NCBI GenBank assembly: GCA_944391545.1 | Contig: CALXTZ010000001.1 | Coordinates: forward strand, 1-40,146 | Direction of reading: 5' to 3' | From: an uncultured Alphaproteobacteria bacterium | Lineage (GTDB): Bacteria; Pseudomonadota; Alphaproteobacteria; CAAHEQ01; UBA3637 | DNA length: 40,146 bases | In this document: positions 1 to 39,410 of the stretch, in pieces | How positions within the stretch are numbered: position 1 is the stretch's first letter | How the letters are laid out: every line of letters starts with the position of its first letter | The notes under the pieces: generated by a model | What the model was told of the DNA's origin: nothing | Seen by the model: only the letters and a program-made list of their open reading frames with translations | Databases searched by the model: none | Program-made: the position numbers and the translations under genes

Positions 1-501
1 TGCGGATCCACAAAAGGTCAATGTAATGCGTGTAATGCGGCTTCGGCAGAAAACAATGAGACTCTTTGCAAAAATTGCGGATGGGATTGGGTTTATACCT
101 TTGTTATGTACGACAGCCAGGAGAATTTTGCATGTGGCGGGACTAAATGGTGTCAGGCCAGATATGGCAGCGGTGGGGATACCTATTTTGCGGCTCCAAT
201 CTCAGGAGATGTCGAGGGGACATATTGTTGTAAAGAAGGTCAGGCGGCCTATGTTGCTTACAGTGCAGGGGAGTACGCCATTCAATGCTGCACGGCAGAT
301 CGCATTTTCATGCATGCTCCAATAGTTAAAAACGGCAAGACTTTCACGTCTTATATGTGTTGCGAAGGAGAAAATTTCACTGGAGAAACAAAATGCTATA
401 CGAACACGTATAACGGCGTTACATCAACCTATTGCAGATGCTGTTATACAGACTGTTACGTCCTGGGAGACGGCACGCAACACTGTAGTATAAGGTGCTG
501 A
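1..501 (+). CDS. Cysteine-rich secreted/surface protein, C-terminal fragment (5' end lies outside the window)
   Basis: Frame 1 is open from nt 1 (CGSTKGQCNACN...) to TGA at 499-501. There are 20 Cys in 166 translated residues, including four CC doublets (YCC, QCC, MCC, RCC). It is the same compositional class as the 681-aa protein at 24535-26580. Confidence 0.55.
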   Translation, partial: CGSTKGQCNACNAASAENNETLCKNCGWDWVYTFVMYDSQENFACGGTKWCQARYGSGGDTYFAAPISGDVEGTYCCKEGQAAYVAYSAGEYAIQCCTADRIFMHAPIVKNGKTFTSYMCCEGENFTGETKCYTNTYNGVTSTYCRCCYTDCYVLGDGTQHCSIRC

Positions 502-23444: not shown

Positions 23445-23870
23445 ATGGGATATAATTATCAGGAAATCGTACAAAAAGCTTTTTTAAAAGTCGTTCAAGA
23501 CATTCTGACCGATGTTAGCCGAAACGGGCTACCCGATCCGCATCATTTCTACATCACTTTTTCCACAAAGCATCCGGATGTTCAAATGCCGGCGTTCTTA
23601 AAAGAGCAATACACCGATGAAATGACGATTGTTTTACAACACCAATTTCAAAATCTAACGGTTCAAGAAAATTATTTTGAAGTCGATTTGTCATTTTCCG
23701 GGCAATATACAACGCTTCACATTCCGTTTACATCCCTGGTTTCTTTTGTCGATCCGTCGGCTCAATTTGCACTGCAATTCTTACCGGCGCTTTATCAAAA
23801 GAAAGAAGGAAAACCGGTTCACGAAGAAGCCGAAGTCATTGACTTGAATGCTGTTCGGAAAAAGCAATGA
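23445..23870 (+). CDS. sspB: SspB-like ClpXP adaptor (alphaproteobacterial type)
   Basis: 141 aa. The N-terminal domain pattern VVQDIL...GLPDPHHFYITFSTKHPDVQMP...TIVLQHQF resembles stringent-starvation-protein-B family adaptors. The C-terminal tail is charged. Confidence 0.65.
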   Translation: MGYNYQEIVQKAFLKVVQDILTDVSRNGLPDPHHFYITFSTKHPDVQMPAFLKEQYTDEMTIVLQHQFQNLTVQENYFEVDLSFSGQYTTLHIPFTSLVSFVDPSAQFALQFLPALYQKKEGKPVHEEAEVIDLNAVRKKQ

Positions 23871-24073
23871 AAAAGAAATCCGTCGTTTTATTCGGCCATG
23901 CAACCAGCGTTTCTTTGGAAAACGAATTCTGGCAAGCGCTTCAGGACATCGCTGATAATCGGCAAACATCCGTCAGCGCGCTGATCGCACAAATTGACGA
24001 AAACCGAACAACAAATTTATCCAGCGCCATACGTGTCTTTATTTTAAAGCAGCTGCAAAATTCCAAAAATTAA
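23867..24073 (+). CDS. Ribbon-helix-helix domain protein (RHH_4-like)
   Basis: GHATSVSLENEFWQALQDIADNRQTSVSALIAQID...NLSSAIRVFIL matches the RHH_4 pattern as I recall it. Its start overlaps the sspB-like stop (ATGA). Confidence 0.75.
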   Translation: MKKKSVVLFGHATSVSLENEFWQALQDIADNRQTSVSALIAQIDENRTTNLSSAIRVFILKQLQNSKN

Positions 24074-24165
24074 TTTTTAATATTGAATTTTAATTTGAAT
24101 CTGCTCATAATATTTCTAATGCACAAGGAGGTACAGGATGCAGCTTTATTCAAACAACACGTTTA

Positions 24166-24178
24166 CCCCCCCCCCCCC
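24166..24178 (+). repeat. Homopolymeric C13 tract
   Basis: Counted directly: 13 consecutive C. The tract lies inside an 18-codon mini-ORF (24138-24194, SD AAGGAGG) and between -35-like TTTACC and -10-like TATTTT hexamers. Confidence 0.95.
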
Positions 24179-24534
24179 GACCTATTTTAATTGAAATAAC
24201 GCGTCCGTTTAATGCTTTTTATCCCATTTTAATGCGACGCCAACACCTTTTATTTCGCGTTAAGATAAAAAGGATGGAAATGTGTTACCTTTTTTACAGA
24301 GTTCGTTTAAACTTGTGATATCCCTAATTCACGGTTGTTTAGGATTGTTAATTAGGAGAATAAGATGTTACACTTTATTTCATTTTTTTAAAAAAGATCG
24401 CACACTACGGAAAAAAACACAGCCCGAAAGAAAGTACGAAAATACGGCCAAGTCGTTCGGGGACTTTTCCGCCCGCCGCGCCGAAATTCTTCGGGCGCGC
24501 GGCGCGGCGGGTAGCTCCCCAATCCGGCAGAAGC

Positions 24535-26580
24535 ATGATTGAGATGTTGGCTGTTCTGGCCATCATGGGCGTTTTGACTGTGGGCGGAATTGCCGCTTAT
24601 TCCTTCGCCGTTTCTAAACACCGCGCCAATCAAATCTACAACCAAGTCGATTTACGCGCTGTTGCTTCTTTCGGAAATCCTTTCGTCAGACAAATACAAG
24701 TCGGACAAACTTATCCTTTGGCCGGGTTCGATGAAATCGTCGAAAACATCACTTACCAACATCAAAAGACTTCCGGTAACGGGTATGACATTATCGCTTC
24801 TCACGTGCCCGAACGTGTTTGCCGTCGTTTGCAAGATATGACTTTTCCCGTTCCCAAATCCGTTACATTGAATGAGGCCGACCTTTCTTCAACGTGTGGG
24901 AATGACAATACGTTTGTTTTTTCTTATGACGGTTTGTCCGTCGGAAAACCGTCAAGCGGTGTTGATCCGATTGATTGTAATTGTTCCGGCTGTCAAAGTT
25001 GCGAAAGCGGAACCTGTCAAGACAATGACAACTTATGCGGCCCCAAAGAAGTCTGTGTCGCCGGAAGTTGTCAATGTGCACCGGGATACGAAGAATGCGG
25101 CGGCAGTTGTTATGCCACATGTGGAGAAGGTTATATGCGCGATCCCGTCACTTGTGATTGCATCTGTGAACCGCAGGAATGTCCCGAACACGCCTCATGG
25201 GATACGGCAACTTGTTCTTGCGTCTGCGAAGACGGATATGACATGTGCGGCGGTTCGTGTCATCCCGTGTGTAACAGTTCCGGCATGACGGGCGAACGAG
25301 ATCCGAACACCTGTGCCTGCACGTGTTTTGAAGGCACGAATGCTGACACATGTGCTTGCCCCGACGGGTATATTTACATCAATGGTCAGTGCCAACGATT
25401 CGAATGCAAAGGCGGAACAACCGGTTTCACATTCGACTGTTTCATCAACGGCGTCCAATGTGGTCGTCTTTGTTCAAGTGACGGCAGTGGCTGTTTACAG
25501 GGAACGTGCCATCCTGAAACGTGTGAAGGAAACGGCGTGTTCTCTAATGAAAGATACGGCGGATGCCGAGATGGCGAAAAATATTGTGTGCCTATTTTCT
25601 TTGAAAATGGATCCATTAACTATTGGCGTTGCTACAATGAATATGGGGATTGTTGTGATGCCTCTTCCTATGGAGAGTGTCGCCTTGGTTCCTGTTACGA
25701 TAATCCTTGCATAAAGTATGATGGTTCTACTTATGAACCTGTCAACGCTTGGTATTTATATGGATGCAAGTTCAATTCAAATTTAAGTTGCTATCTCAAC
25801 AATGAAGAACGCACACGATGGAATTGTTTTGTTAACGGCGTTTTATGCAACAATCAATGTACTGATCCTTTAAATTGTGCCGGATGTGATTATACAAACT
25901 GTCCAGATGGTGCTATATATGACCCGGAAACCGGTATGTGTACAAAAAATGGGATCTATTGTGACAATACCGGATGCTACTTTGATGCCCAGAAGTCTCA
26001 AAGATGCGGCGAAGCATGCGGTAAAAATGGATTTGGTATCTGCGGAGAAGGATTGTGTTTTGACACCTGTCCAGCTGGTTTCAACTTAGCTTTCAGCTCG
26101 TTACGAGGATACGGCGCTTGTATTAAAAATGATTTAACTTGCTTTCACAGTACTGCCAACGCCCCGGCTATGTGTTATTACCAAAATCAATTATGTGGTA
26201 ATCTATGCGAATTAGACGGAACTAATTGTGAAATTGTCTTCTTACCTCAATGCGCAAGTGGAGGCAAATGCGTTTACGGATACCAAATTACTGCAGATTG
26301 TGAATGTGATACAAATCCAAATGCACAAATTGGAGATTATTGTTGTGCCCCTGGACATACGTTTATTAACGGAGGATGTACTCTCATTGAATGTCCAGAA
26401 GGACAAGTTGCAGATTCAAATGGTATTTGCCGAACAGAATGTGAAAATAATGCAGAAGTCATCTCGACAGGAAACGACACATGCGTTTGCGGCGGTAACA
26501 TTTATAAAGATAACTTCAATCGTACAATCTGCTGTGATGCCGACCATTCATGGGATGAAACATCCGAAACGTGCGTATAA
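24535..26580 (+). CDS. Pilin-like (prepilin-type N-terminus) giant cysteine-rich protein; the true 5' end is probably upstream (open frame back to 24364)
   Basis: 681 aa from the first in-frame ATG. The N-terminus MIEMLAVLAIMGVLTVGGIAAY is preceded in frame by ...SGRS, giving G|RSMIE with Glu at +5. A pilin-size head of about 145 aa has one Cys pair (C96, C121). The next 535 or so aa hold about 80 Cys. A terminator follows directly. Confidence 0.8.
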   Translation: MIEMLAVLAIMGVLTVGGIAAYSFAVSKHRANQIYNQVDLRAVASFGNPFVRQIQVGQTYPLAGFDEIVENITYQHQKTSGNGYDIIASHVPERVCRRLQDMTFPVPKSVTLNEADLSSTCGNDNTFVFSYDGLSVGKPSSGVDPIDCNCSGCQSCESGTCQDNDNLCGPKEVCVAGSCQCAPGYEECGGSCYATCGEGYMRDPVTCDCICEPQECPEHASWDTATCSCVCEDGYDMCGGSCHPVCNSSGMTGERDPNTCACTCFEGTNADTCACPDGYIYINGQCQRFECKGGTTGFTFDCFINGVQCGRLCSSDGSGCLQGTCHPETCEGNGVFSNERYGGCRDGEKYCVPIFFENGSINYWRCYNEYGDCCDASSYGECRLGSCYDNPCIKYDGSTYEPVNAWYLYGCKFNSNLSCYLNNEERTRWNCFVNGVLCNNQCTDPLNCAGCDYTNCPDGAIYDPETGMCTKNGIYCDNTGCYFDAQKSQRCGEACGKNGFGICGEGLCFDTCPAGFNLAFSSLRGYGACIKNDLTCFHSTANAPAMCYYQNQLCGNLCELDGTNCEIVFLPQCASGGKCVYGYQITADCECDTNPNAQIGDYCCAPGHTFINGGCTLIECPEGQVADSNGICRTECENNAEVISTGNDTCVCGGNIYKDNFNRTICCDADHSWDETSETCV

Positions 26581-26581
26581 A

Positions 26582-26610
26582 AAAGCTCCCGAAAAGGGAG
26601 CTTTCTTTTT
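26582..26610. terminator. Terminator between convergent genes (Cys-rich pilin-like gene and uppP)
   Basis: AAAGCTCCC-GAAAA-GGGAGCTTT followed by CTTTTT. The hairpin and T-run start just after the stop at 26578-26580; the tail overlaps the last two bases of the uppP stop codon. Confidence 0.75.
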
Positions 26611-27388
26611 ACAAAAAAACAAATAACAGGTAAAGCCCCAACGCCAACCGATAAACCATAAAAACGAAAAAAGATTCGGTTTTGACCCAGCGCATTAAAA
26701 AAGAAACGGCCATCAATCCGCCGATAAAAGAAAATAAAATGCCCCATCCGAATGTCGGATTAAGCACATCCAATTTATTTTCAAAAAATAACTTACCGAT
26801 GTGCCAAATCGCCGCAGCCGCAATAACCGGTACGGATAACATCATGGAAAACTGAGTCGCTGCCGTTCGTTTCATTCGACACAACCGACCGGCCGTCATG
26901 GTAATTCCGGATCGGCTGACTCCCGGCACCAACGCTAAACATTGCGCAATACCGATGAATAGCGCATCTTTTTTGGTCATGGTTTGAATTTCTTTTTGCG
27001 AAGCGCTGTTACGGTCAGCCGCATACAAAATAACCCCGAAAACCATCAACGTTCCGGCAATCAGTATCGGCGATCGAAAAACAGTCTCTACAATATGCTC
27101 CAAAAAGAATCCGACAATCAAAGCCGGCACCGTCGCAATACATAAATGAATAAATAAATTTTGAGCTGGCCCTTTTTTATAAAACCCCCATAAAATATGC
27201 CAAAAATCGCGCCCGAAATAAACCAAAACAGCTGCCAAAGTCCCGACATGCAACCCGATATCCATCGCTATTCCCTGATCCGGCCAGTGCAACAGACGCG
27301 GAACCAAAATCAAATGCGCCGAAGAACTGATCGGCAAAAATTCCGCAATGCTCTGCACCAAAGCCAAAACAAACGTCTGCAACATCAT
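26609..27388 (-). CDS. uppP: Undecaprenyl-diphosphate phosphatase
   Basis: 259 aa and multi-TM, with the BacA motifs EFLPISSSAHL and PGVSRSG. Confidence 0.95.
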   Translation of the reverse strand: MMLQTFVLALVQSIAEFLPISSSAHLILVPRLLHWPDQGIAMDIGLHVGTLAAVLVYFGRDFWHILWGFYKKGPAQNLFIHLCIATVPALIVGFFLEHIVETVFRSPILIAGTLMVFGVILYAADRNSASQKEIQTMTKKDALFIGIAQCLALVPGVSRSGITMTAGRLCRMKRTAATQFSMMLSVPVIAAAAIWHIGKLFFENKLDVLNPTFGWGILFSFIGGLMAVSFLMRWVKTESFFVFMVYRLALGLYLLFVFL

Positions 27389-30953: not shown

Positions 30954-31385
30954 TCAAGACGCAGTTCCTGATCGAACCGGTACTGTTTCAATCACCCAAA
31001 TATTTGTCGGGGCGTAAAAGTAAGAAAATGAAAACAGTGAGAACAAATAGGCGACAATTGCGATCATGCGCAAAATCGGACTTGGGACAAAAGGAATACC
31101 CTGTGCGTCCGTACCCACAAAGCAAATTTCCAAAAAGACCCAAATGCCGACGATCAGCAGCGGAATAAACAAAAAGACGGCTGCGAACAACGTCATCAAC
31201 AATTGAATTAATCCGCGCCAAATATAGCCTGCATAAAAGTTATGAATACCTAAAAAACCGAAGAAAAAAGCCAACAATACATATACAGCGGCGCTTTTCG
31301 GTTTCCCGGCGGCCGATGGCACCGATGCCGCGACGTCTTCATTTTCTAACGCAACCGGTTTCTGCGTGCGATTATTTTTTTTCAT
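30954..31385 (-). CDS. TM2-domain membrane protein
   Basis: The start is at MKKNNRTQ, behind SD AAGGGGGA. TM2 signature: VLLAFFFGFLGIHNFYAGYIWRGLIQLL...VGTDAQGIPF. Confidence 0.75.
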   Translation of the reverse strand: MKKNNRTQKPVALENEDVAASVPSAAGKPKSAAVYVLLAFFFGFLGIHNFYAGYIWRGLIQLLMTLFAAVFLFIPLLIVGIWVFLEICFVGTDAQGIPFVPSPILRMIAIVAYLFSLFSFSYFYAPTNIWVIETVPVRSGTAS

Positions 31386-31430
31386 AAATCCCCCTTCTCT
31401 CATTTCTCTTTTAAGAGAAATAGGGATTTT

Positions 31431-31464
31431 AAAACGGGCTGTCAAGGTATGATCAGCCCGTTTT
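31431..31464. terminator. Perfect 11-bp hairpin between TM2 paralogues (A/T-ended, bidirectional type)
   Basis: AAAACGGGCTG-12 nt-CAGCCCGTTTT, immediately after the stop of 31468-31809. Confidence 0.5.
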
Positions 31465-31467
31465 CAT

Positions 31468-31809
31468 TTAATTGAATTTAACGCCTTTTGCATATTTGTC
31501 GATAAAAATCATTTCGATGATAACACAAATCCAAACGGCGAACAACGGAACAATGAGCCAAAATAAAAACAACGTAATCAGCAATTGAGCCAACCCGCGT
31601 CCGATATAACCGGCATAAAAGTTATGAATACCGAAGCTCCCCAAAAACAAAGCCAACAAAATATAAACAACACGATTTTTGGGGGTATCCGCTGCATTTA
31701 CCAGGTTGTTTTGAAGAAGAACCTTTTTTTGTTCTTCAAATTCAGCGTCCGTAATAACGCCTTTTTTCTTTAAATCAGCCAATTTTTCTAAATCTGTAAT
31801 ATTATCCAT
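31468..31809 (-). CDS. SHOCT + TM2 domain membrane protein
   Basis: SD AAGGAG. The N-terminal LEKLADLKKKGVITDAEFEEQKKVLL is SHOCT-like. It is followed by the TM2 signature LALFLGSFGIHNFYAGYIGRGLAQLL. Confidence 0.8.
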   Translation of the reverse strand: MDNITDLEKLADLKKKGVITDAEFEEQKKVLLQNNLVNAADTPKNRVVYILLALFLGSFGIHNFYAGYIGRGLAQLLITLFLFWLIVPLFAVWICVIIEMIFIDKYAKGVKFN

Positions 31810-31908
31810 TCAAATTCTCCTTCATCTAAAGAACACATGACATACGAGATGATGCCTCTATTGACACCATACATAAAATTCCCGTCAATTTCAATGCTTT
31901 TTATTCGA

Positions 31909-32655
31909 TTAATACGGGATCATCACATAAACGCGCGACTCTTCGCCCGTTAAAATCACCGCCTCCGATGATTGCTCCCGAACAAGAGCGGCCGTTTGCT
32001 CGTTTTTAAACGTCATAACGGTCACAAGCCCCGTGCCTTGATCAATAAAATAAAAATCTTGAGCCAAAGCATCGGGAACGTCCTCATCCGTCAGCTCGGA
32101 ACAAGGAACCGTATTCACGCTGCCGTCCGCAAACGATGTTTGAGCGGCAACCGCGCACGCAATCATATAATCCAAAGACTCATTTGCCTCATACTTTTTT
32201 ACCGCCGCAGAATATCCCGCAACGCCGCCGACAATAAAGACGCTTAATAAAGGCAGTAACAATAAAATCAACAAAATTGCCGTTAAAACACCTCTTAAGA
32301 TAGGCGCCGGCGTTAAAGGCATACCGCGGGCATCCGTTTTTGTCACAATCATCTCGACCACGACCCAAATACACACGCCGAACAATGACACAAAAAGCGA
32401 AATCGGTGAAAAAAGAGTCAATATCAATTGAATCAAACCGCGAACCCAACGGCCGACATAAAAGTTGTGAACACCGAAGATTCCCAAAAGAAAAGCCAGG
32501 ACAAGATAAAGAGCGCCCGATTTTTGCAACCGAATTTGTTTAGCCTGTATTTGAGCGGACAAAATTACCTTTTTCTGTTCTTCGAATTCGGCATTTGTAA
32601 TGACGCCTTTTTTCTTTAAACCGGCTAACTTTTCCAAATCTGTCAACGCGTCCAT
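31909..32655 (-). CDS. SHOCT + TM2 domain membrane protein with an extra C-terminal soluble domain
   Basis: The start is at MDALTDLEKLAGLKKKGVITNAEFEEQKKVIL, behind SD AGGAG. The ORF-track extension to 32808 would overlap tRNA-Ser. TM2 signature: GIFGVHNFYVGRWVRGLIQLIL. Confidence 0.75.
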   Translation of the reverse strand: MDALTDLEKLAGLKKKGVITNAEFEEQKKVILSAQIQAKQIRLQKSGALYLVLAFLLGIFGVHNFYVGRWVRGLIQLILTLFSPISLFVSLFGVCIWVVVEMIVTKTDARGMPLTPAPILRGVLTAILLILLLLPLLSVFIVGGVAGYSAAVKKYEANESLDYMIACAVAAQTSFADGSVNTVPCSELTDEDVPDALAQDFYFIDQGTGLVTVMTFKNEQTAALVREQSSEAVILTGEESRVYVMIPY

Positions 32656-32778
32656 TTTGTACTCCTGTATTAATAAGACAAAGTTGACTCTATTTTCAAA
32701 GAGAATCATAAAAAAGTAAAGCTTTTTTATTTTTTGCTTGCCAACTGCGGAAATTTTATGTATAAGTGAGTCACTTTT

Positions 32779-32869
32779 GGATGGGTGGCCGAGTGGTTGA
32801 AGGCGCACGCCTGGAAAGTGTGTTTAGGTCTAAAGCCTAACGGAGGTTCGAATCCTCTCCCATCCGCCA
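32779..32869 (+). tRNA. tRNA-Ser (GGA)
   Basis: 91 nt: acceptor GGATGGG/CCCATCC, D-arm GGCCGAGTGGTTGAAGGC, anticodon loop CTGGAAA, a long variable arm, T-arm GGAGG-TTCGAAT-CCTCT (one terminal G:U pair), and an encoded GCCA. Confidence 0.93.
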
Positions 32870-33380: not shown

Positions 33381-33686
33381 ATGACTTTTTTTGAACAGGT
33401 TTACGCGATCGTTGAACAAATTCCCAAAGGAAAAGTCGCAACCTACGGCCAAATCGCTTTTTTAACCGGACATCCTCGATCAGCGCGAATGGTCGGATAT
33501 GCGCTGCATGTCAATCCAAAGCCAGGCATTATTCCATGCCACCGCGTTGTTAATCGCGAAGGGCATGTTGCTCCCGGATTTGCATTTGGCGGTCCAGGGA
33601 AACAAGCCGAATTATTGGCCAAAGAAGGAATTGTCGCATCGCCCGACGGATATGTCGACTTAACCCAATATCTGTGGTGTCCCTAA
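33381..33686 (+). CDS. MGMT-family protein (methylated-DNA-protein-cysteine methyltransferase DNA-binding/active-site domain only)
   Basis: 101 aa with VATYGQIA and the active-site IPCHRVV. Confidence 0.85.
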   Translation: MTFFEQVYAIVEQIPKGKVATYGQIAFLTGHPRSARMVGYALHVNPKPGIIPCHRVVNREGHVAPGFAFGGPGKQAELLAKEGIVASPDGYVDLTQYLWCP

Positions 33687-35758
33687 TCACGAACATGTTC
33701 GGATTGATATTGGCACTCCCGCTGATGACGTTGCTGCCACTGAAAGAATCGCCGCATCATTTGTTCCTTGTCCGCAGCAGGCAAATCAGACAACCGTCGA
33801 TAAGCTTCTTCTTGAACGGATTGCGGTTGGCGCGCCAAAATCTGATAGGCTTTTTCCTGCATGTCAAACGATAACCCCAGCACACAATGCAAGACAACCG
33901 GCGGGACGCGCTCAATATCTTCAATCGGGCATAAGTCCGCCCGAACATAACGAATGGTGTCGGGAATATCTTCCAAAACATGAACCGGCGCACAGGAAAT
34001 GTCTAATTCCCGGCAAGCCGGCGACAGCCCTTTTGTCGCGGTCAGATCCGTCATCGCGAGACACACGCTTTCGCACGCTTTAAAATCCGCCAAACAAATA
34101 CCGCCTTTTACACCGCCCTTTTTCAAAGAAAACCGCCACACGGAAGAAGGCAACCCGGACAAAGAAGACAAAACATTATATCCGCTTTCAATCTCCTGCA
34201 CACCTTGAGCCATATCCGACAAGTTCCGAATACCCGTCTGACTTATTTTGAGCGTCCGACACACGGGCATTCCTTTTAACGACGTTAAATCTTTGTTATC
34301 CGATATATCAAAACAATCCACAACCACGCGCGATAAATCCGGCAGCTCTTTCAACCCCATCCCCGCAAAAGATAATGTACCGGATACAATAATCAATCCA
34401 TCATCCGTTTTTGTATAAGGGACATTTAATCCGTTTAAAATCAGTTCCGGCGTCGGATGCCTGTATGTCCAAAGAACCGTCGATAAATCATCCGTATGCA
34501 TTTCTTTGGGCAAATGATAAACAGCCTCCATCGGATCGTTGAAATGCGTCGTTACAAATGTTTGAACCTGATCTTCAAAACCGTCCGTTACCTCGCCTTT
34601 GATGCGGCCTAACCGATACACGACTTTTCCGCTTTCATGAAAATAAGGCTTTAAAATAACCCGACATTTGGGAATGAAGTCTTGATCCAATCCATATACG
34701 ACAATTGATCCGCGCCCGATTTCCTGTTTGATATATTTAAAGTTTTCTCCCACCGCCGACAGGCAAAACGATTCATGCTTGGCTGAGCGCATCCATTCTT
34801 TATACGTTGACAATGTTGCGATTTCATAAGGATTGCGCGTAAACATAATTGTCTTAAACGGCATTTGATCCGGCAGAATTTCACGCCCTGTCGTCGTCAC
34901 TTTCAACGAAATATTTTTGGTTTGCTCATAAAATTGAGCCACTCGGCACACATTGGTTTCAAAAGAATCTTCCGGATGCGTTTCCAATTCATGCGCCAGA
35001 CGGTAAAACAAAAACTCATCACGAAGCGTCATAAAGAATGCTTTATTGCGAGTTGCGTTTTCGCGCATTCTTTGTGATTTTAAAGTCTTGTAGGCATCAT
35101 AGTTTTTCTGTTTAAACGTATCCAAAAGCGCTTCATCCGTTAAATCAAACGAATCAAATCCGGCTGCCAACTGGCGAAGCACCTGAGCCCGTTGCATTAA
35201 AAACGCATTTAATCGAAACGTTTGAACACTGCGGCCGTTAAAGTAAGACAACGTCGGTATTTTGCCGTTCTGAACCAATTGAAGCGTATGTTGCCCCGGC
35301 AAAGAATCGTTCATCATATCAATCCGTTCTTTGACCAAATCAAAGGCCGTTCGAATATTTTCAACCTGTAAATAAAACGATCCGCCGACACCGAATTCTT
35401 TCGGATAAGGCGGCCGAACCGCCCGACGAATGGCCATCCCGTCCCGAACGGCAGAATCAATAATCGCTTTATACTTATGCCCGGCATGAAAAAGCTCATC
35501 AACATAAAATTTCAAATTTTCCGATGCCCGCGGATATTTTAAAATCTCGCGAATTTCCCGTTCCGTCGACAACGGATTTTGGACAAAGCGGATGGTATGA
35601 AACAAACAACGGACAATTTGTTTTTCAATTTCTTTGCGCTCTTGCGCCGACGCATCGTTTGACGGAGACTGCGCAATCAAAGCACGCGCTTTTTTGAAAA
35701 AGCTGTTGACCCGTTGTTGGCGTAAAATCAAAACTTCCTTTTGCGATAAAATATGCAT
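33683..35758 (-). CDS. Large hypothetical protein with a C-terminal LRR-like region (691 aa)
   Basis: The start is at MHILSQKE, behind SD AAGGGA. The C-terminal third has LRR-like repeats (LKELPDLSRVVVDCFDISDNKDLTSLKGMPVCRTLKISQTGIRNLSDM...). The N-terminal 450 or so aa have no motif I recognise. Confidence 0.65.
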   Translation of the reverse strand: MHILSQKEVLILRQQRVNSFFKKARALIAQSPSNDASAQERKEIEKQIVRCLFHTIRFVQNPLSTEREIREILKYPRASENLKFYVDELFHAGHKYKAIIDSAVRDGMAIRRAVRPPYPKEFGVGGSFYLQVENIRTAFDLVKERIDMMNDSLPGQHTLQLVQNGKIPTLSYFNGRSVQTFRLNAFLMQRAQVLRQLAAGFDSFDLTDEALLDTFKQKNYDAYKTLKSQRMRENATRNKAFFMTLRDEFLFYRLAHELETHPEDSFETNVCRVAQFYEQTKNISLKVTTTGREILPDQMPFKTIMFTRNPYEIATLSTYKEWMRSAKHESFCLSAVGENFKYIKQEIGRGSIVVYGLDQDFIPKCRVILKPYFHESGKVVYRLGRIKGEVTDGFEDQVQTFVTTHFNDPMEAVYHLPKEMHTDDLSTVLWTYRHPTPELILNGLNVPYTKTDDGLIIVSGTLSFAGMGLKELPDLSRVVVDCFDISDNKDLTSLKGMPVCRTLKISQTGIRNLSDMAQGVQEIESGYNVLSSLSGLPSSVWRFSLKKGGVKGGICLADFKACESVCLAMTDLTATKGLSPACRELDISCAPVHVLEDIPDTIRYVRADLCPIEDIERVPPVVLHCVLGLSFDMQEKAYQILARQPQSVQEEAYRRLSDLPAADKEQMMRRFFQWQQRHQRECQYQSEHVRD

Positions 35759-35876
35759 GCTTATCCCTTTGTTTTTAAGGTTAATTATACGCTTTTTTCC
35801 CAAAAATGTCAATGTGTTTCAGGATATTAAAGCTTTGTGCTTGACTCTTGTTTAAAAAAGAAACAGGATGTGTGTT

Positions 35877-37565
35877 ATGAAAAAAAGAGCTGATCGACCT
35901 CTTTACGAAAACATCCGAAAAGGATTAACGCTTTTGTGGAATCTCACAAAAGTGATTGTTGCTTTTTTCACGGCATTCAGCCTTGTTCCGGCATTTGAAG
36001 CCGTCTTGCAACAAAATGCCGATCCTTTATTTAAAATGCCGACCGGATTGTTTTTAAAAACATCTTTGCTGTTAACGAGTGTCGTTTTGTTGTTACCGCG
36101 CCGTCGAATCAGAGCAGCCTTTTTTGCCCTTTTTTATACCGGCCTGTTGATTTTTAACTTTATTCAAATCGAGCATCTCATTTTATTCGGGACAAAATTA
36201 AGTTATTCCTCGGCTTTAACGATGCTCAATACGGATCCGCAAATGATTCTGGCCTTTATTGACCATTTCCTCGGATGGAAAACAATGGGCGGCATCCTTT
36301 TTTGCTTGTTTCCTTTTATTTGGCTGTCTGTTATCAATATCCCTTATCAGCTTCATGTTTCTTTGGAAAATCAAGGCAAAAAAATTTCCGTTTCTGCATT
36401 GATTTGTCTGGTTGTCCTGTGTTTTACGGTCGGATACATCCGGGCACATATCAAAGAATATCCGTTTTATGATGCGGATTTTGCAGCGTCTTACCATGAT
36501 TTGAAAGACTTTGAAAAACGCAGCGAAAAAATGAAAGAATTTCATTTAACCGATGTTGCCGTTCAACCGTCCGATAAACAACAGGTGCATGTCATCGTCA
36601 TCGGCGAAAGCGCCCGGCGCGAAGAAATGTCCGTTTACGGGAATGTCATCAGAACCACACCTTTTGCCGAAAGCATCCGTGATTCGCTTTACGTATTTGA
36701 TAATGTGACCAGTTGGTCGGCACAAACCGCAACAATGATGGAAAAATTGCTGACATTATCCGAAGATGAAGCAGATCGGTATAAAATGTGGCAGGAACCC
36801 AGCTTAATTGATTTTTACAATGCGGCCGGTTTTGAAACGTATTGGATTTCCGGACATTCCATGTACGGTGTTTTTGACAACTACTCACACTTGTTGAAAC
36901 GCGTCAAGCACACGACCTTTATCAACAAGCACAAAAATTGGAACGACGGTTTTAAAAAGCATCGGTTTGATTCCGAATTACTGCCGGCGATTGAAGAAGC
37001 CTTAAAAGATCCGGCACCCCGTAAAGTGATTTTCATCCATTTAATGGGATCGCACATTCGATACAAAGACCGCTATCCGGCCGACTACCAAAGCAAAAAT
37101 CCGGAATTTAAAATTTTGGAAAACAATGCGCATCCTCGATACATCGAATATGTTAAAAGCATTCATTACACCGATTGGATGTTATCCGAGATTTTCAAGC
37201 GCGTTCAAAAAGAAAAAGAAGCTTCTTCCTTTATTTTGTATTTTTCCGATCATGCCGAAGGTGTTTCTTTATTAAACGCCTGTTTCTGCCATGCCGATTC
37301 CAAAAAGGACTACGAACAATTGGAAATCCCGTTTTTCTTGTGGTTGTCCGATGTCTACAAGCAGGAAAACGCGGCCTATGTCGAACCGTTCAAAGAATAT
37401 CTTCATCGCCCGTATGAAACAAACACCTGGATTCACAGCATCTTGGATTTATCGCGTATTTCGCACGACAAGCTGGATCCGAAAAAGTCAGTTTTCAATC
37501 CGGCATTTCAACCGCCGGCCAAACGGCGTCATGAAGAATGGTTGGAATTACGATCGAAAGGGTAA
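35877..37565 (+). CDS. Phosphoethanolamine transferase (sulfatase/alkaline-phosphatase superfamily, EptA/CptA-like)
   Basis: N-terminal TM block, then VIGESARR, HLMGSH and YFSDHAE. An alternative start is at 35868. Confidence 0.8.
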   Translation: MKKRADRPLYENIRKGLTLLWNLTKVIVAFFTAFSLVPAFEAVLQQNADPLFKMPTGLFLKTSLLLTSVVLLLPRRRIRAAFFALFYTGLLIFNFIQIEHLILFGTKLSYSSALTMLNTDPQMILAFIDHFLGWKTMGGILFCLFPFIWLSVINIPYQLHVSLENQGKKISVSALICLVVLCFTVGYIRAHIKEYPFYDADFAASYHDLKDFEKRSEKMKEFHLTDVAVQPSDKQQVHVIVIGESARREEMSVYGNVIRTTPFAESIRDSLYVFDNVTSWSAQTATMMEKLLTLSEDEADRYKMWQEPSLIDFYNAAGFETYWISGHSMYGVFDNYSHLLKRVKHTTFINKHKNWNDGFKKHRFDSELLPAIEEALKDPAPRKVIFIHLMGSHIRYKDRYPADYQSKNPEFKILENNAHPRYIEYVKSIHYTDWMLSEIFKRVQKEKEASSFILYFSDHAEGVSLLNACFCHADSKKDYEQLEIPFFLWLSDVYKQENAAYVEPFKEYLHRPYETNTWIHSILDLSRISHDKLDPKKSVFNPAFQPPAKRRHEEWLELRSKG

Positions 37566-38471
37566 ATCCAGTTGACCTTGAAAAAACAAAGCACGCATGG
37601 CAATGTTTTTTTCCAAAAATTCCGTTGCAGTTGCTTCATCCATCGGTCGACCGGTATAGTACCCTTGCGAATAATCACAATCCAAATCTTTTAAAACTTT
37701 GAAATCTTGAGCCGTCTCGGCGCCCTCAATAACAACTTTCATGCCCAGCAAATGACCGGTTTTAACCATCGCTTCCATCACTTTCATGCCTTTGACGGAA
37801 CGCGGCGCTCTGTGAATAAAACTCCGATCGATTTTTAATTTATAAATCGGTAAGTCGATCAAAGAACCGAAAGACGAAAACCCTGTCCCGAAATCATCAA
37901 TGGTAATATGGACGCCGATTTTAGATAATTTTTGCAACTCATCAATGGTGTATTTGGGATTTTTCATCAGCAAACTTTCCGTCAGCTCTAATTCCAACAA
38001 AGCCGGCGGCACATGCCAATGCGTCAGTTTTTTCATCACGCTTTTCACAAAAGACTTATTTTCAAATTGCTTCATCGATACATTGACAGCCATCGTCATC
38101 GGATAAGACACCAAAGACATCCATGCGTGGATTTGAAACAAAGCCTGTTCAACCACTAAATCTCCCAACGGCAAAATCAATCCGCTTTCTTCGGCAATCG
38201 GAATAAAAACATCCGGTGACAACATTCCTTTTTCCGGATGATGCCAACGCAGCAAAGCTTCCCAACCAACAATTTGCATCGTCGATACATCAATTTCCGG
38301 TTGAAAATATAAAAGAAAGCCTTGCCGTTTTGCCAGTGCCGCACGCATGTCTTTTTCAAGGTTTTTACGTGCTTTATATGCTGGCGTCATCGGCACGGAA
38401 ACGCAATGTGTTAAGAAACCGCTTAAAACATTTTGTTTGACATTCTCATTTTTTTTCGCGATGCTTTTCAT
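37548..38471 (-). CDS. Stand-alone EAL-domain protein (c-di-GMP phosphodiesterase)
   Basis: Motifs seen: EALLRW, ELELTES, DDFGTGFSS, KIDRSF, EGAET and QGYY. The 3' end overlaps the convergent transferase gene by 18 nt. Confidence 0.92.
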   Translation of the reverse strand: MKSIAKKNENVKQNVLSGFLTHCVSVPMTPAYKARKNLEKDMRAALAKRQGFLLYFQPEIDVSTMQIVGWEALLRWHHPEKGMLSPDVFIPIAEESGLILPLGDLVVEQALFQIHAWMSLVSYPMTMAVNVSMKQFENKSFVKSVMKKLTHWHVPPALLELELTESLLMKNPKYTIDELQKLSKIGVHITIDDFGTGFSSFGSLIDLPIYKLKIDRSFIHRAPRSVKGMKVMEAMVKTGHLLGMKVVIEGAETAQDFKVLKDLDCDYSQGYYTGRPMDEATATEFLEKNIAMRALFFQGQLDLPFRS

Positions 38472-38567
38472 TGTTTTTACTTTTTACTTGCCTTTTTCAT
38501 TATTCTACTATAAGTTGAAAAATGAAAGATGTCAAATCTTTAAAATCACATAAAAAGGGGAAACAAA

Positions 38568-39410
38568 ATGAAAAAACTTTTATTAATTATTGTCTTAATT
38601 ATTGCGGCGCTGATAATTGCCGCTTATTTTACGATGGATATTTTAATTAAGGAGGCTGTTCAAAAATACGTTCCGCCGATTACAAAGACAAATATCCAAA
38701 TTTCATCCGTACACACATCCGTCTTTGACGGAGAATTTAAAGTCAAGGGTTTGGCCGTCGGCAATCCGTCCGGTTTTTCCACGCCGAATGCCTTTACGCT
38801 CGGTGAAATAGAAGTCTCCGTATCCATGAAAAGCCTGTTCAGCGATGTCATTATGATTAAGGAAATAACCATTGATAAAGCTGTTGCAACAATTGAAATT
38901 TCAAAATCGGGAACCAATCTCGGAACCATCAATAAAAATATCAACGACTATATGAAAAACCATCAATCGGCGGACAAGCCGGCTCAAGCGACCGACACAG
39001 ACTCGAAAAAGGCCAAAAAAGTCGTCATCAAAGAGCTGACCATCAAAAACAGTTCAATCCAATTGGCCAGCAGTTTAACGCAATCTCAAAAAATGATGGA
39101 AATTCCGTTGCCGACGATTCAATTGAAAAACATCGGGGAAGAAAAAAATCCGATGACGCTTGATCAGGCATTCGCATTGATTTTATCGACATTCTCACAA
39201 CAATCCATGCAGACTCTTGTTCAAAACGCACGGAATTTGTTGCCTGACTTGCAAGGAGAAATCGGTAAAATCCAAGACCAAATCAACGCGGCCAAAGGCC
39301 AAATTGACTCTTTTAAAGGCGAAGTGGAAGCTGCCAAAAAGCAACTCAACGATACAAAAGAAAACTTTAAGTCGTTGGCGGATGACATAAAAAGCAAGTT
39401 TAGCAAGTAA
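38568..39410 (+). CDS. AsmA-like/DUF748-like membrane-anchored protein with a C-terminal coiled coil
   Basis: N-terminal TM helix, then a beta-rich region resembling AsmA-family N-termini (my recollection only), and a C-terminal heptad-like segment (QINAAKGQIDSFKGEVEAAKKQLNDTK). Confidence 0.6.
   Translation: MKKLLLIIVLIIAALIIAAYFTMDILIKEAVQKYVPPITKTNIQISSVHTSVFDGEFKVKGLAVGNPSGFSTPNAFTLGEIEVSVSMKSLFSDVIMIKEITIDKAVATIEISKSGTNLGTINKNINDYMKNHQSADKPAQATDTDSKKAKKVVIKELTIKNSSIQLASSLTQSQKMMEIPLPTIQLKNIGEEKNPMTLDQAFALILSTFSQQSMQTLVQNARNLLPDLQGEIGKIQDQINAAKGQIDSFKGEVEAAKKQLNDTKENFKSLADDIKSKFSK

Follow-up and report, generated by a model that had tools for sequence, protein, structure and literature searches.

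The 40,146-nucleotide stretch of DNA analysed here (hereafter the window; positions 1 to 40,146 of contig CALXTZ010000001.1, forward strand) comes from an uncultured gut alphaproteobacterium and carries a gene for a 681-residue protein that begins like a type IV pilin and continues into about 535 residues crowded with cysteines. We consider it probable that this protein serves as a modular minor pilin or tip adhesin subject to phase variation, in which a type IVb-like head is fused to a disulfide-knotted module. The gene has numerous relatives in uncultured Alphaproteobacteria, with length-variable homopolymer tracts upstream of their coding regions.

Results

A pilin-type N-terminus and a predicted pilin fold

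The 681-residue protein corresponds to the listed open reading frame (ORF) at 24535..26580 on the forward strand, the frame of which, reading ...APQSGRSMIEMLAVLAIMGVLTVGGIAAY, is open in the 5' direction as far as 24364. The initial annotation had placed the feature at 24364-26580, which holds for the open frame and fails for the start: position 24364 is merely the first codon past a stop, and there is no in-frame ATG, GTG or TTG between 24364 and 24535. The leader-coding stretch in the pilin frame (24364..24528, forward strand) has no start codon of its own in the window copy and ends with the Gly(-1) codon at 24526-24528. Read through the cleavage site, the frame gives ...FFGRAARRVAPQSG-RSMIEMLAVLAIMGVLTVGGIAAY, with Gly at -1, Arg at +1 and Glu at +5 (codon 24541-24543, forward strand). 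The pilin-type N-terminus with the G↓RSMIE geometry (the arrow marks the predicted cleavage site), noticed when the sequence was first read, is thus present in frame directly upstream of the ORF, and G↓RSMIEMLAVLAIMGVLTVGGIAAY has the features of a class III signal, namely Gly(-1), a hydrophobic stretch and Glu+5.

Profile searches point in the same direction. The NCBIfam model for the prepilin cleavage/methylation domain, TIGR02532, scored 18.8 bits for the window protein, above its cut-off of 16.3, and matched 21/31 family members, while Pfam N_methyl matched 23/29 members at E<=0.1. When the sequence profile of the family was compared with the PDB, it matched the N-termini of pilins (Geopilin and PilA), with E-values of 1e-4 to 0.03.

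The predicted mature head runs from Arg+1 (24529..24933, forward strand) and comprises the alpha-1 helix and a four-stranded sheet, as judged by AlphaFold2 and Foldseek. The full-length model, built from a 29-sequence alignment, has a mean predicted local distance difference test score (pLDDT) of 81.5 and shows a helix over residues 2-47, followed, as far as residue 131, by four strands and a short helix, a layout that, as modelled, is pilin architecture. A separate model of the first 150 residues (pLDDT 82.7, predicted template modelling score 0.72) has a helix at 2-48 and strands at 74-82, 85-93, 111-114 and 127-133. The pilin-fold features found in the predicted model are accordingly the alpha-1 helix, the antiparallel sheet and the cysteines C96 and C121 (codons 24820-24822 and 24895-24897, forward strand), a pair that is invariant in the family alignment. 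All six best Foldseek matches of the head in the PDB are type IVb pilins (CofA, CofA crystal structures and TcpA), the best being CofA of the enterotoxigenic Escherichia coli (ETEC) pilus, 9iuf_A, with a probability of 1.0, template modelling scores of 0.56/0.43 and an E-value of 0.012. The proposal of a complete small pilin at the N-terminus is thereby supported, in that a class III signal is detected and a pilin fold is predicted for the head.

A cysteine-rich module of predicted beta-hairpins

An exact count agrees with the earlier hand count of 82 cysteines in the 681-residue protein, C96 and C121 lying in the head and the other 80 in residues 148-680. Both reported copies of the CxCxxGYxxCGGSCxxxC module (CQCAPGYEECGGSCYATC and CVCEDGYDMCGGSCHPVC) are there as well. 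The head is joined to the cysteine-rich part by a linker predicted to be disordered (ORF residues 134-147, LSVGKPSSGVDPID; 24934..24975, forward strand; pLDDT <50 in both models), which favours the view that the 535 cysteine-rich residues form a separate module. Beyond the linker, the full-length model is built almost wholly of short beta-hairpins.

Three segments can be told apart within this part, all on the forward strand. Residues 148-300 (24976..25434), which hold both copies of the module, are conserved and are common to paralogues with differing C-terminal parts, P0026-P0039 being 67-85% identical to the window protein over just 34-41% of the query (P and L numbers denote proteins and genomic loci of the family, respectively). 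Residues 301-600 (25435..26334) form a hypervariable centre, in which the cysteine scaffold is kept and the loops vary, and where internal repeats are weakly detectable (E 0.003). Residues 601-681, with the stop codon (26335..26580), form a conserved C-terminal cysteine-rich module recognised by comparison with family members. Immediately 3' of the stop codon lies an intrinsic terminator with a 9-bp stem and a T run (26582..26614, forward strand).

The cysteine spacing had at first been likened to that of EGF, furin and laminin repeats, and this likeness did not survive. Pfam and NCBIfam scans of the cysteine-rich part matched no family; EGF_Teneurin gave weak matches in 2/29 family members, and no EGF, furin or laminin model of Pfam matched the window protein. 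Structure prediction followed by Foldseek, as had been proposed, delivered a model of beta-hairpin cysteine-rich modules and, in the PDB, weak matches only: R-spondin, SCARF1, Pfs25 and mucins at a probability of <=0.3, along with weak EGF- and OspA-like ones. Membership of the EGF, furin or laminin repeats was therefore rejected, neither sequence models nor structure models matching.

A large family of dispersed genes

Far from being a one-off, the gene has dozens of counterparts per genome and thousands in metagenomes. A word-indexed search returned 47 homologues, none with a name or a Pfam domain, and the motif G(R/K)(S/T)(M/L)(I/L)E-MLAVLAI at the cleavage site is kept in 47/47; some of these proteins have short canonical leaders (MKKYLAKQQG↓RS in P0004 and P0010, MTIKTNKKTKQTG↓RT in P0044), and in others the leader measures 20 to about 160 amino acids, its Shine-Dalgarno sequence and ATG lying in frame. 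When one genome was scanned for each species, the yield was 53 genomic loci, nearly all from uncultured Alphaproteobacteria, sampled from human gut (including Hadza samples), sheep rumen and roe-deer caecum. These loci contain 61 prepilin-motif genes, the mature products of which span 112-838 amino acids and 0-101 cysteines. The search for further paralogues was thus rewarded, with at least 24 loci in a single metagenome-assembled genome (MAG), CALGXF01, and about 18 in another, CASECI01. In metagenomes, an exhaustive profile search found 68 clusters at 50% with E<=1e-30 and 2,899 with E<=1e-10, the median cysteine content being 8% among the matches listed. Our literature searches turned up no account of this family. 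One family member, P0195, has 1,664 amino acids with 207 cysteines, and another, P0233, has a duplicated ...SPQSGRSMIEMLAVLAIIGVLSPQSGRSMIEMLA N-terminus, which may be a product of recombination or of assembly.

Poly-G/C tracts, or the conserved 5' end of the pilin genes, often form the ends of MAG contigs (for example, tracts at L009 10-21, L010 21-33, L012 1-12, L020 11-22 and L029 3222-3233), and many family loci lie at contig ends. The family therefore seems to fragment assemblies of these genomes, and copy numbers per genome are lower bounds. A second family member is probably present in the window itself, at 1..501 on the forward strand, where the C-terminal 166 codons of another cysteine-rich protein run off the contig start; by tblastn, this fragment is 58% identical over 104 amino acids to an ORF of L013 and 40% over 53 amino acids to a prepilin-motif gene of L029. 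The earlier designation of this fragment as a paralogue stands for its cysteine-rich C-terminus, which is related to the family, and lacks the N-terminus, which falls outside the window.

Homopolymer tracts with ON and OFF states

Across the 586 kb that make up all retrieved DNA of the family loci, there are 20 runs of G or C of at least 9 nt, and 18/20 are found no more than 450 nt 5' of a family gene (binomial P ~2e-22). These tracts belong to two classes. In the first, the leader-coding sequence contains poly-C that directly follows a start such as MLFIHNNNNMTPPP..., and the length of the tract places this start either in frame with the prepilin (ON: C12 in L005 and C12 in L004) or one base out of it (OFF: C11 in L038, C13 in L010 and C12 in L020). 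In the second, poly-G of 9-13 nt lies between TTGACA and TATGAT or TATACT, with spacers of 17-20 nt and a Shine-Dalgarno sequence and ATG after it. Differences in tract length between strains or paralogues thus alter frame or spacing, which is the sequence feature of a contingency locus, and family members appear, by this comparison, to be turned ON and OFF individually.

At the window locus, alignment with L002 and L003, where the same locus occurs in two other strains, marks the likely true prepilin start at 24354..24367 (forward strand), consisting of the Shine-Dalgarno sequence AGGAG at 24354-24358 and the ATG at 24365. The equivalent ATG opens the full ORF in the syntenic loci: P0001 starts MSHFISF..., P0002 starts MLHFISFFLKKIAHYGKK..., and the L003 ORF from this ATG runs MLHFISFFLKKIAHYGKK...G↓RSMIEM. 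Alignments of the syntenic loci also bring out a T7 run (24383-24389) followed by A6 (together 24383..24395, forward strand); at this point L003 has T8, and L002 and L067 have an interrupted form, TTTCTTTT. With one T fewer than L003, the frame is shifted and ATG 24365 is out of the pilin frame; translation from it gives MLHFISFF and then a premature TAA at 24389-24391. Taken at face value, the window copy reads as phase OFF.

Further upstream, the Shine-Dalgarno sequence AAGGAGG (24125-24131) precedes an 18-codon mini-ORF from ATG 24138 (MQLYSNNTFTPPPPTYFN, followed by a stop; whole element 24125..24194, forward strand) that contains a C13 homopolymer (24166..24178, forward strand). The poly-C at this locus is C13 in the window, C13 followed by ACC in L003 and C11 in L002, and no tract length joins the mini-ORF to the pilin frame here, while the same kind of start with poly-C begins the prepilin leader in L004, L005, L010, L020 and L038. 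The mini-ORF is perhaps a remnant, or else an upstream ORF with a regulatory role. A sigma-70-like promoter candidate (TTGAAT-17-CATAAT; 24083..24111, forward strand) lies 3' of the RHH_4 gene; it comes from a consensus scan only, in which the number of such sites was not above the shuffle expectation, and is no more than a candidate. The upstream switch-like elements suspected in the initial annotation are thus real, as the syntenic alignments and the enrichment of tracts upstream of family genes attest.

Leaders that run through GC-rich palindromes

In most family members, a Shine-Dalgarno sequence and ATG lie in frame 5 to about 160 codons 5' of Gly-1, and the long leaders run through GC-rich palindromes. 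Element A of the window (24472..24511, forward strand), the 12-bp stems of which are perfect (24472-24483 and 24500-24511), has a fold energy of -49 kcal/mol (z = -2.3). The sequence of element B is ATCGGCGGGGCG...CGCCCCGCCGAT. Both elements occur solely in the leader region of family genes and always on the coding strand, with stems kept and loops varying; further sites are L002 10094-10136 and 10173-10210 and, across L007-L039, just 5' of family genes. The distance from element B to the Gly codon takes 7 different values, every one a multiple of 3, which argues that the elements are translated within the leader. Rfam gave no match on 23800-24700. General REP-like (repetitive extragenic palindromic) repeats were considered and rejected as an identity for A and B, since neither the rest of the window nor DNA away from family genes holds any further copy.

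Replacement of the central allele

In L002 and L003, the gene is intact and lies, as in the window, between SspB-RHH_4 and BacA-ComEC; a DNA-pattern scan of metagenomes for more strains at this locus added one further locus. The flanking DNA of the syntenic strains is 96.6-98.7% identical, and the megablast alignment with L003 breaks at 25421-26205. Among close relatives, protein identity is 80-100% over residues 1-300, drops to 10-60% over 301-600 and recovers over the last 80 residues. In the comparison with L002, synonymous sites of residues 301-600 have reached saturation (proportion of synonymous differences 0.70-0.80), with a ratio of nonsynonymous to synonymous change (omega) of ~0.05; the two ends of the gene show a synonymous divergence of 0.2-0.4, and BacA, ComEC, SspB and an ABC transporter one of 0.035-0.21. 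Saturated synonymous sites together with low omega indicate that the centre is an old functional allele acquired via recombination rather than a recently mutated stretch.

The source of such alleles may lie within the family. The centre of the L003 allele has its best similarity (58-77%) to P0035, the head of which is just 23% identical to that of the window protein, and since best matches differ by segment, the segments are mosaic across the family. Nearly all invariant columns of the family alignment are cysteines, which implies a fixed disulfide scaffold with variable loops. Collectively, the sequence comparisons point to replacement of the central allele by recombination. Shufflon- or inverton-type variation was rejected for this locus because 23800-27000 contains neither direct nor inverted repeats of >=16 nt and there is no recombinase near the gene. 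A multigene family with a hypervariable, recombined centre and homopolymer switches fits the variable surface antigen that had been put forward as one identity of this protein.

Type IVb pilus clusters in related genomes

A type IVb cluster is conserved in L046 and four further loci of related gut and rumen Alphaproteobacteria. Its genes are ordered as TcpQ-like, secretin, PAP_PilO, an unknown gene, T2SSE, T2SSF, one or two PilS/Bundlin-type pilins and a second T2SSE, the first T2SSE being annotated bfpD by one source. The small pilins of the related clusters do match PilS/Bundlin models. The major pilin of the cluster starts MKNLYKNEQSG↓RSMVEMLGVLAIIGVLSIGGIAGY, and its alpha-1 is nearly the same as that of the window protein, as is expected of subunits sharing one filament. 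Look-ups of ATPase homologues gave matches in MAGs other than those with family expansions, and no prepilin peptidase was found within 10 kb of the related pilus clusters. Cluster sites include L057 4940-15310 and 15801-19444, as well as L046, L058, L065, L066 and L068. Beside the cluster, there is often a gene for a periplasmic Redoxin/AhpC-TSA protein, together with a VWA-PP2C-protein kinase trio, and TrbC/VirB2-like genes lie upstream.

Other genes in the window

Three consecutive genes for TM2-domain proteins, two of them with SHOCT, occupy 30954-32808 on the reverse strand and are kept in syntenic L002 and L003. So is the gene at 33683-35812 (reverse strand), which encodes a 709-residue protein (691 residues in L002 and L003) with 14 cysteines and no Pfam match. 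At 37548-39410, a gene for an EAL-domain protein of the cyclic di-GMP phosphodiesterase type adjoins one for an AsmA/DUF748 protein; cyclic di-GMP often governs pili and adhesion.

Discussion

In this study, we describe a gene that would encode a pilin of unusual composition, built from a cleavable leader ending in Gly, a small head with one disulfide, a flexible linker and a rod of about 535 residues made of beta-hairpin modules. By the mechanism that we propose, the precursor would enter the inner membrane, its N-terminus on the cytoplasmic side, prepilin peptidase would cut after Gly-1, and the cysteine-rich part would be oxidised in the periplasm. A Bfp/R64-like type IVb machine could then take up the subunit as a minor or tip pilin and present the cysteine-rich module as an adhesin or antigen. 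Expression of each dispersed paralogue would be set by slipped-strand changes in its tract, which, depending on the paralogue, is poly-G between the -35 and -10 boxes or poly-C in the leader-coding sequence, with poly-T in the latter position in the window copy. The exposed centre would be diversified through recombination between alleles and paralogues. Cleavage, disulfide formation, incorporation into a pilus, location at the tip and adhesin function are thus all steps that we infer.

Several observations weigh against the modular minor pilin. Of the N-terminal model searches that had been proposed, TIGR02532 exceeded its threshold whereas Pfam N_methyl did not, scoring 15.0 for the window protein against a cut-off of 21.2; PilS_N and Bundlin sequence models gave no match to it at E<=1. 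The six structural matches of the head range in probability from 1.0 to 0.44 and in E-value from 0.012 to 0.7, none reaching E<=0.001, and the full model likewise has no PDB match at E<=0.001. Arg at +1 and leaders of 50-160 amino acids are uncommon in pilins, and a module of 535 residues is perhaps too bulky except at a tip position. Family genes are scattered among unrelated housekeeping genes instead of lying in pilus operons. There are no genes for prepilin peptidase, pilus ATPase, secretin or Dsb proteins in the 40-kb window or in the family loci of the MAGs with expansions, and the motif scan for pilus machinery in the 586 kb of family loci found a T2SSE ATPase in L046 only. Occurrence of the cluster and an expansion in one genome is hinted at by sheep rumen data: the ATPase P0086 lies on an ENA contig of 112,262 nt and the 101-Cys pilin P0327 on JAFYHG010000012.1, of 112,261 nt, and these contigs probably match each other, with the ranges read for P0086 and P0327 not overlapping. 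Finally, the difference between T7 and T8 could be an assembly error or the mark of a fixed pseudogene.

Next in likelihood to the modular minor pilin comes an anchor account. Here the pilin-like part, with its class III signal and hydrophobic helix, would serve as an anchor only, in the inner membrane or a short periplasmic pseudopilus, displaying the cysteine-rich domain within the periplasm or at the cell surface and never entering an extended pilus, which would resemble the large expansions of prepilin-motif proteins of unknown role in other phyla. Family genes that are dispersed and unlinked to pilus operons, 586 kb of family loci without the machinery, a very large domain and dozens of paralogues, far above the usual number of minor pilins per pilus, are all as this account would have it. 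However, alpha-1 closely matches its counterpart in the major type IVb pilin of related genomes, which suits subunits packed into a common filament, Gly-1, Glu+5 and the head disulfide are kept family-wide, and phase variation and allele replacement point to an exposed molecule facing the host or phages. We regard the anchor account as unlikely.

The state of the 5' region raises another, more doubtful explanation, namely that the window copy is dead or silent, either a pseudogene or a pilS-like storage cassette whose sole role is to pass sequence to expressed paralogues by gene conversion. The lack of an in-frame start codon 5' of Gly-1, the frame broken at T7, the poly-C mini-ORF uncoupled from the gene and the sharing of mosaic segments among family members would all be accounted for in this way. 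Yet the frame of 681 codons is intact and has evolved with an omega of ~0.05-0.13 relative to the syntenic allele, a single-base change restores the L003 ORF, the gene has kept its own Shine-Dalgarno sequence, ATG and terminator, and the syntenic alleles are intact in two other strains; a silent copy is accordingly improbable. That translation starts at ATG 24535, yielding a leaderless MIEMLAVL... protein with an ordinary uncleaved (type II) signal-anchor, is highly improbable: this ATG is the first start codon in frame, and homologues P0019 and P0036 are also called from the same Met, but no Shine-Dalgarno sequence precedes it (GGCAGAAGC), a stable GC hairpin ends 24 nt upstream, G-R-S before the Met is kept at the protein level in all homologues, which is unexpected if it is untranslated, and leader distances are kept as multiples of 3. 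All three explanations are less well supported than a modular minor pilin.

The closest described concept is that of modular pilins, exemplified by PilB and PilC of Streptococcus sanguinis, which carry a vWA and a lectin module, respectively, many modules of such proteins having no database signature (Raynaud et al. 2021, PMC8179133). Modular pilins and the present family share a small class III pilin module, a short linker and a bulky module thought to be presented at the tip for adhesion (PMC8179133). They differ in that the module here is an 80-cysteine array of beta-hairpins of about 535 residues without a Pfam or PDB match, and that there are dozens of paralogues per genome, outside pilus operons and under homopolymer switches. 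The closest functional analogues are the minor pilins CofB (ETEC colonization factor antigen III, CFA/III), TcpB (Vibrio cholerae) and PilV (an adhesin of the R64 thin pilus), and the head described here is nearest in fold to CofA and TcpA, if with weak E-values. CofB consists of a pilin head, a flexible linker and a large C-terminal binding domain, a layout matched by the present family, and the C-terminus of R64 PilV is varied to change binding specificity. The Bfp/R64 machinery also finds its counterpart in the PAP_PilO, TcpQ and PilS/Bundlin pilin genes of the cluster in related genomes. Nevertheless, the window protein matches none of the PilS, Bundlin and PilV models, its locus has no shufflon inverted repeats, and PilV varies by DNA inversion whereas the present family would vary through many separate tract-switched genes and recombination. 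In contrast to CofB, TcpB and PilV, the C-terminal domain here is disulfide-rich rather than a beta-sandwich or lectin. The kind of module, the copy number, the dispersed switched genes and the palindrome leaders thus set the family apart from modular pilins as well as from these minor pilins.

Two further comparisons concern variation. In Neisseria, contingency tracts lie in the signal-peptide coding region of pilC and opa and in the promoter spacer of porA and opc; both positions, the -35/-10 spacer and the leader-coding sequence, occur here, and in both cases tract length sets frame or spacing. Unlike in Neisseria, the targets are pilin-fused cysteine-rich proteins of an uncultured gut alphaproteobacterium. 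The cysteine-rich variant surface proteins of eukaryotic microbes, namely the variant-specific surface proteins of Giardia and the immobilisation antigens of ciliates, resemble the present family in forming large multigene families with a scaffold of ~10% cysteine, variable loops, conserved ends and a variable centre. They differ in switching and in anchorage, by a C-terminal transmembrane segment or glycosylphosphatidylinositol as against a pilin head, and no homology was detected.

It is tempting to speculate, though we hold this only tentatively, that the family is a bacterial counterpart of the protozoan variant-surface-protein systems in gut and rumen Alphaproteobacteria, with dozens of independently switched, recombining genes through which one pilus machine would show an ever-changing repertoire of tips to host, phage or prey, and with the palindrome leaders of 50-160 residues acting as a cleavable module of a new kind, for control or recombination. 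Both modular pilins and homopolymer switches have been described before; their combination in pilin-fused proteins of ~10% cysteine, which number thousands in abundant but uncultured gut Alphaproteobacteria and lack a name, a Pfam domain and a structural relative, is undescribed in the literature that we found. The family provides ready markers for tracking phase states in metagenomes. If displayed on pili, these proteins would be the main variable surface of the organisms that encode them and candidates for interaction with host, mucus or phage, and dense disulfide scaffolds would then be used for antigenic variation in bacteria as well.

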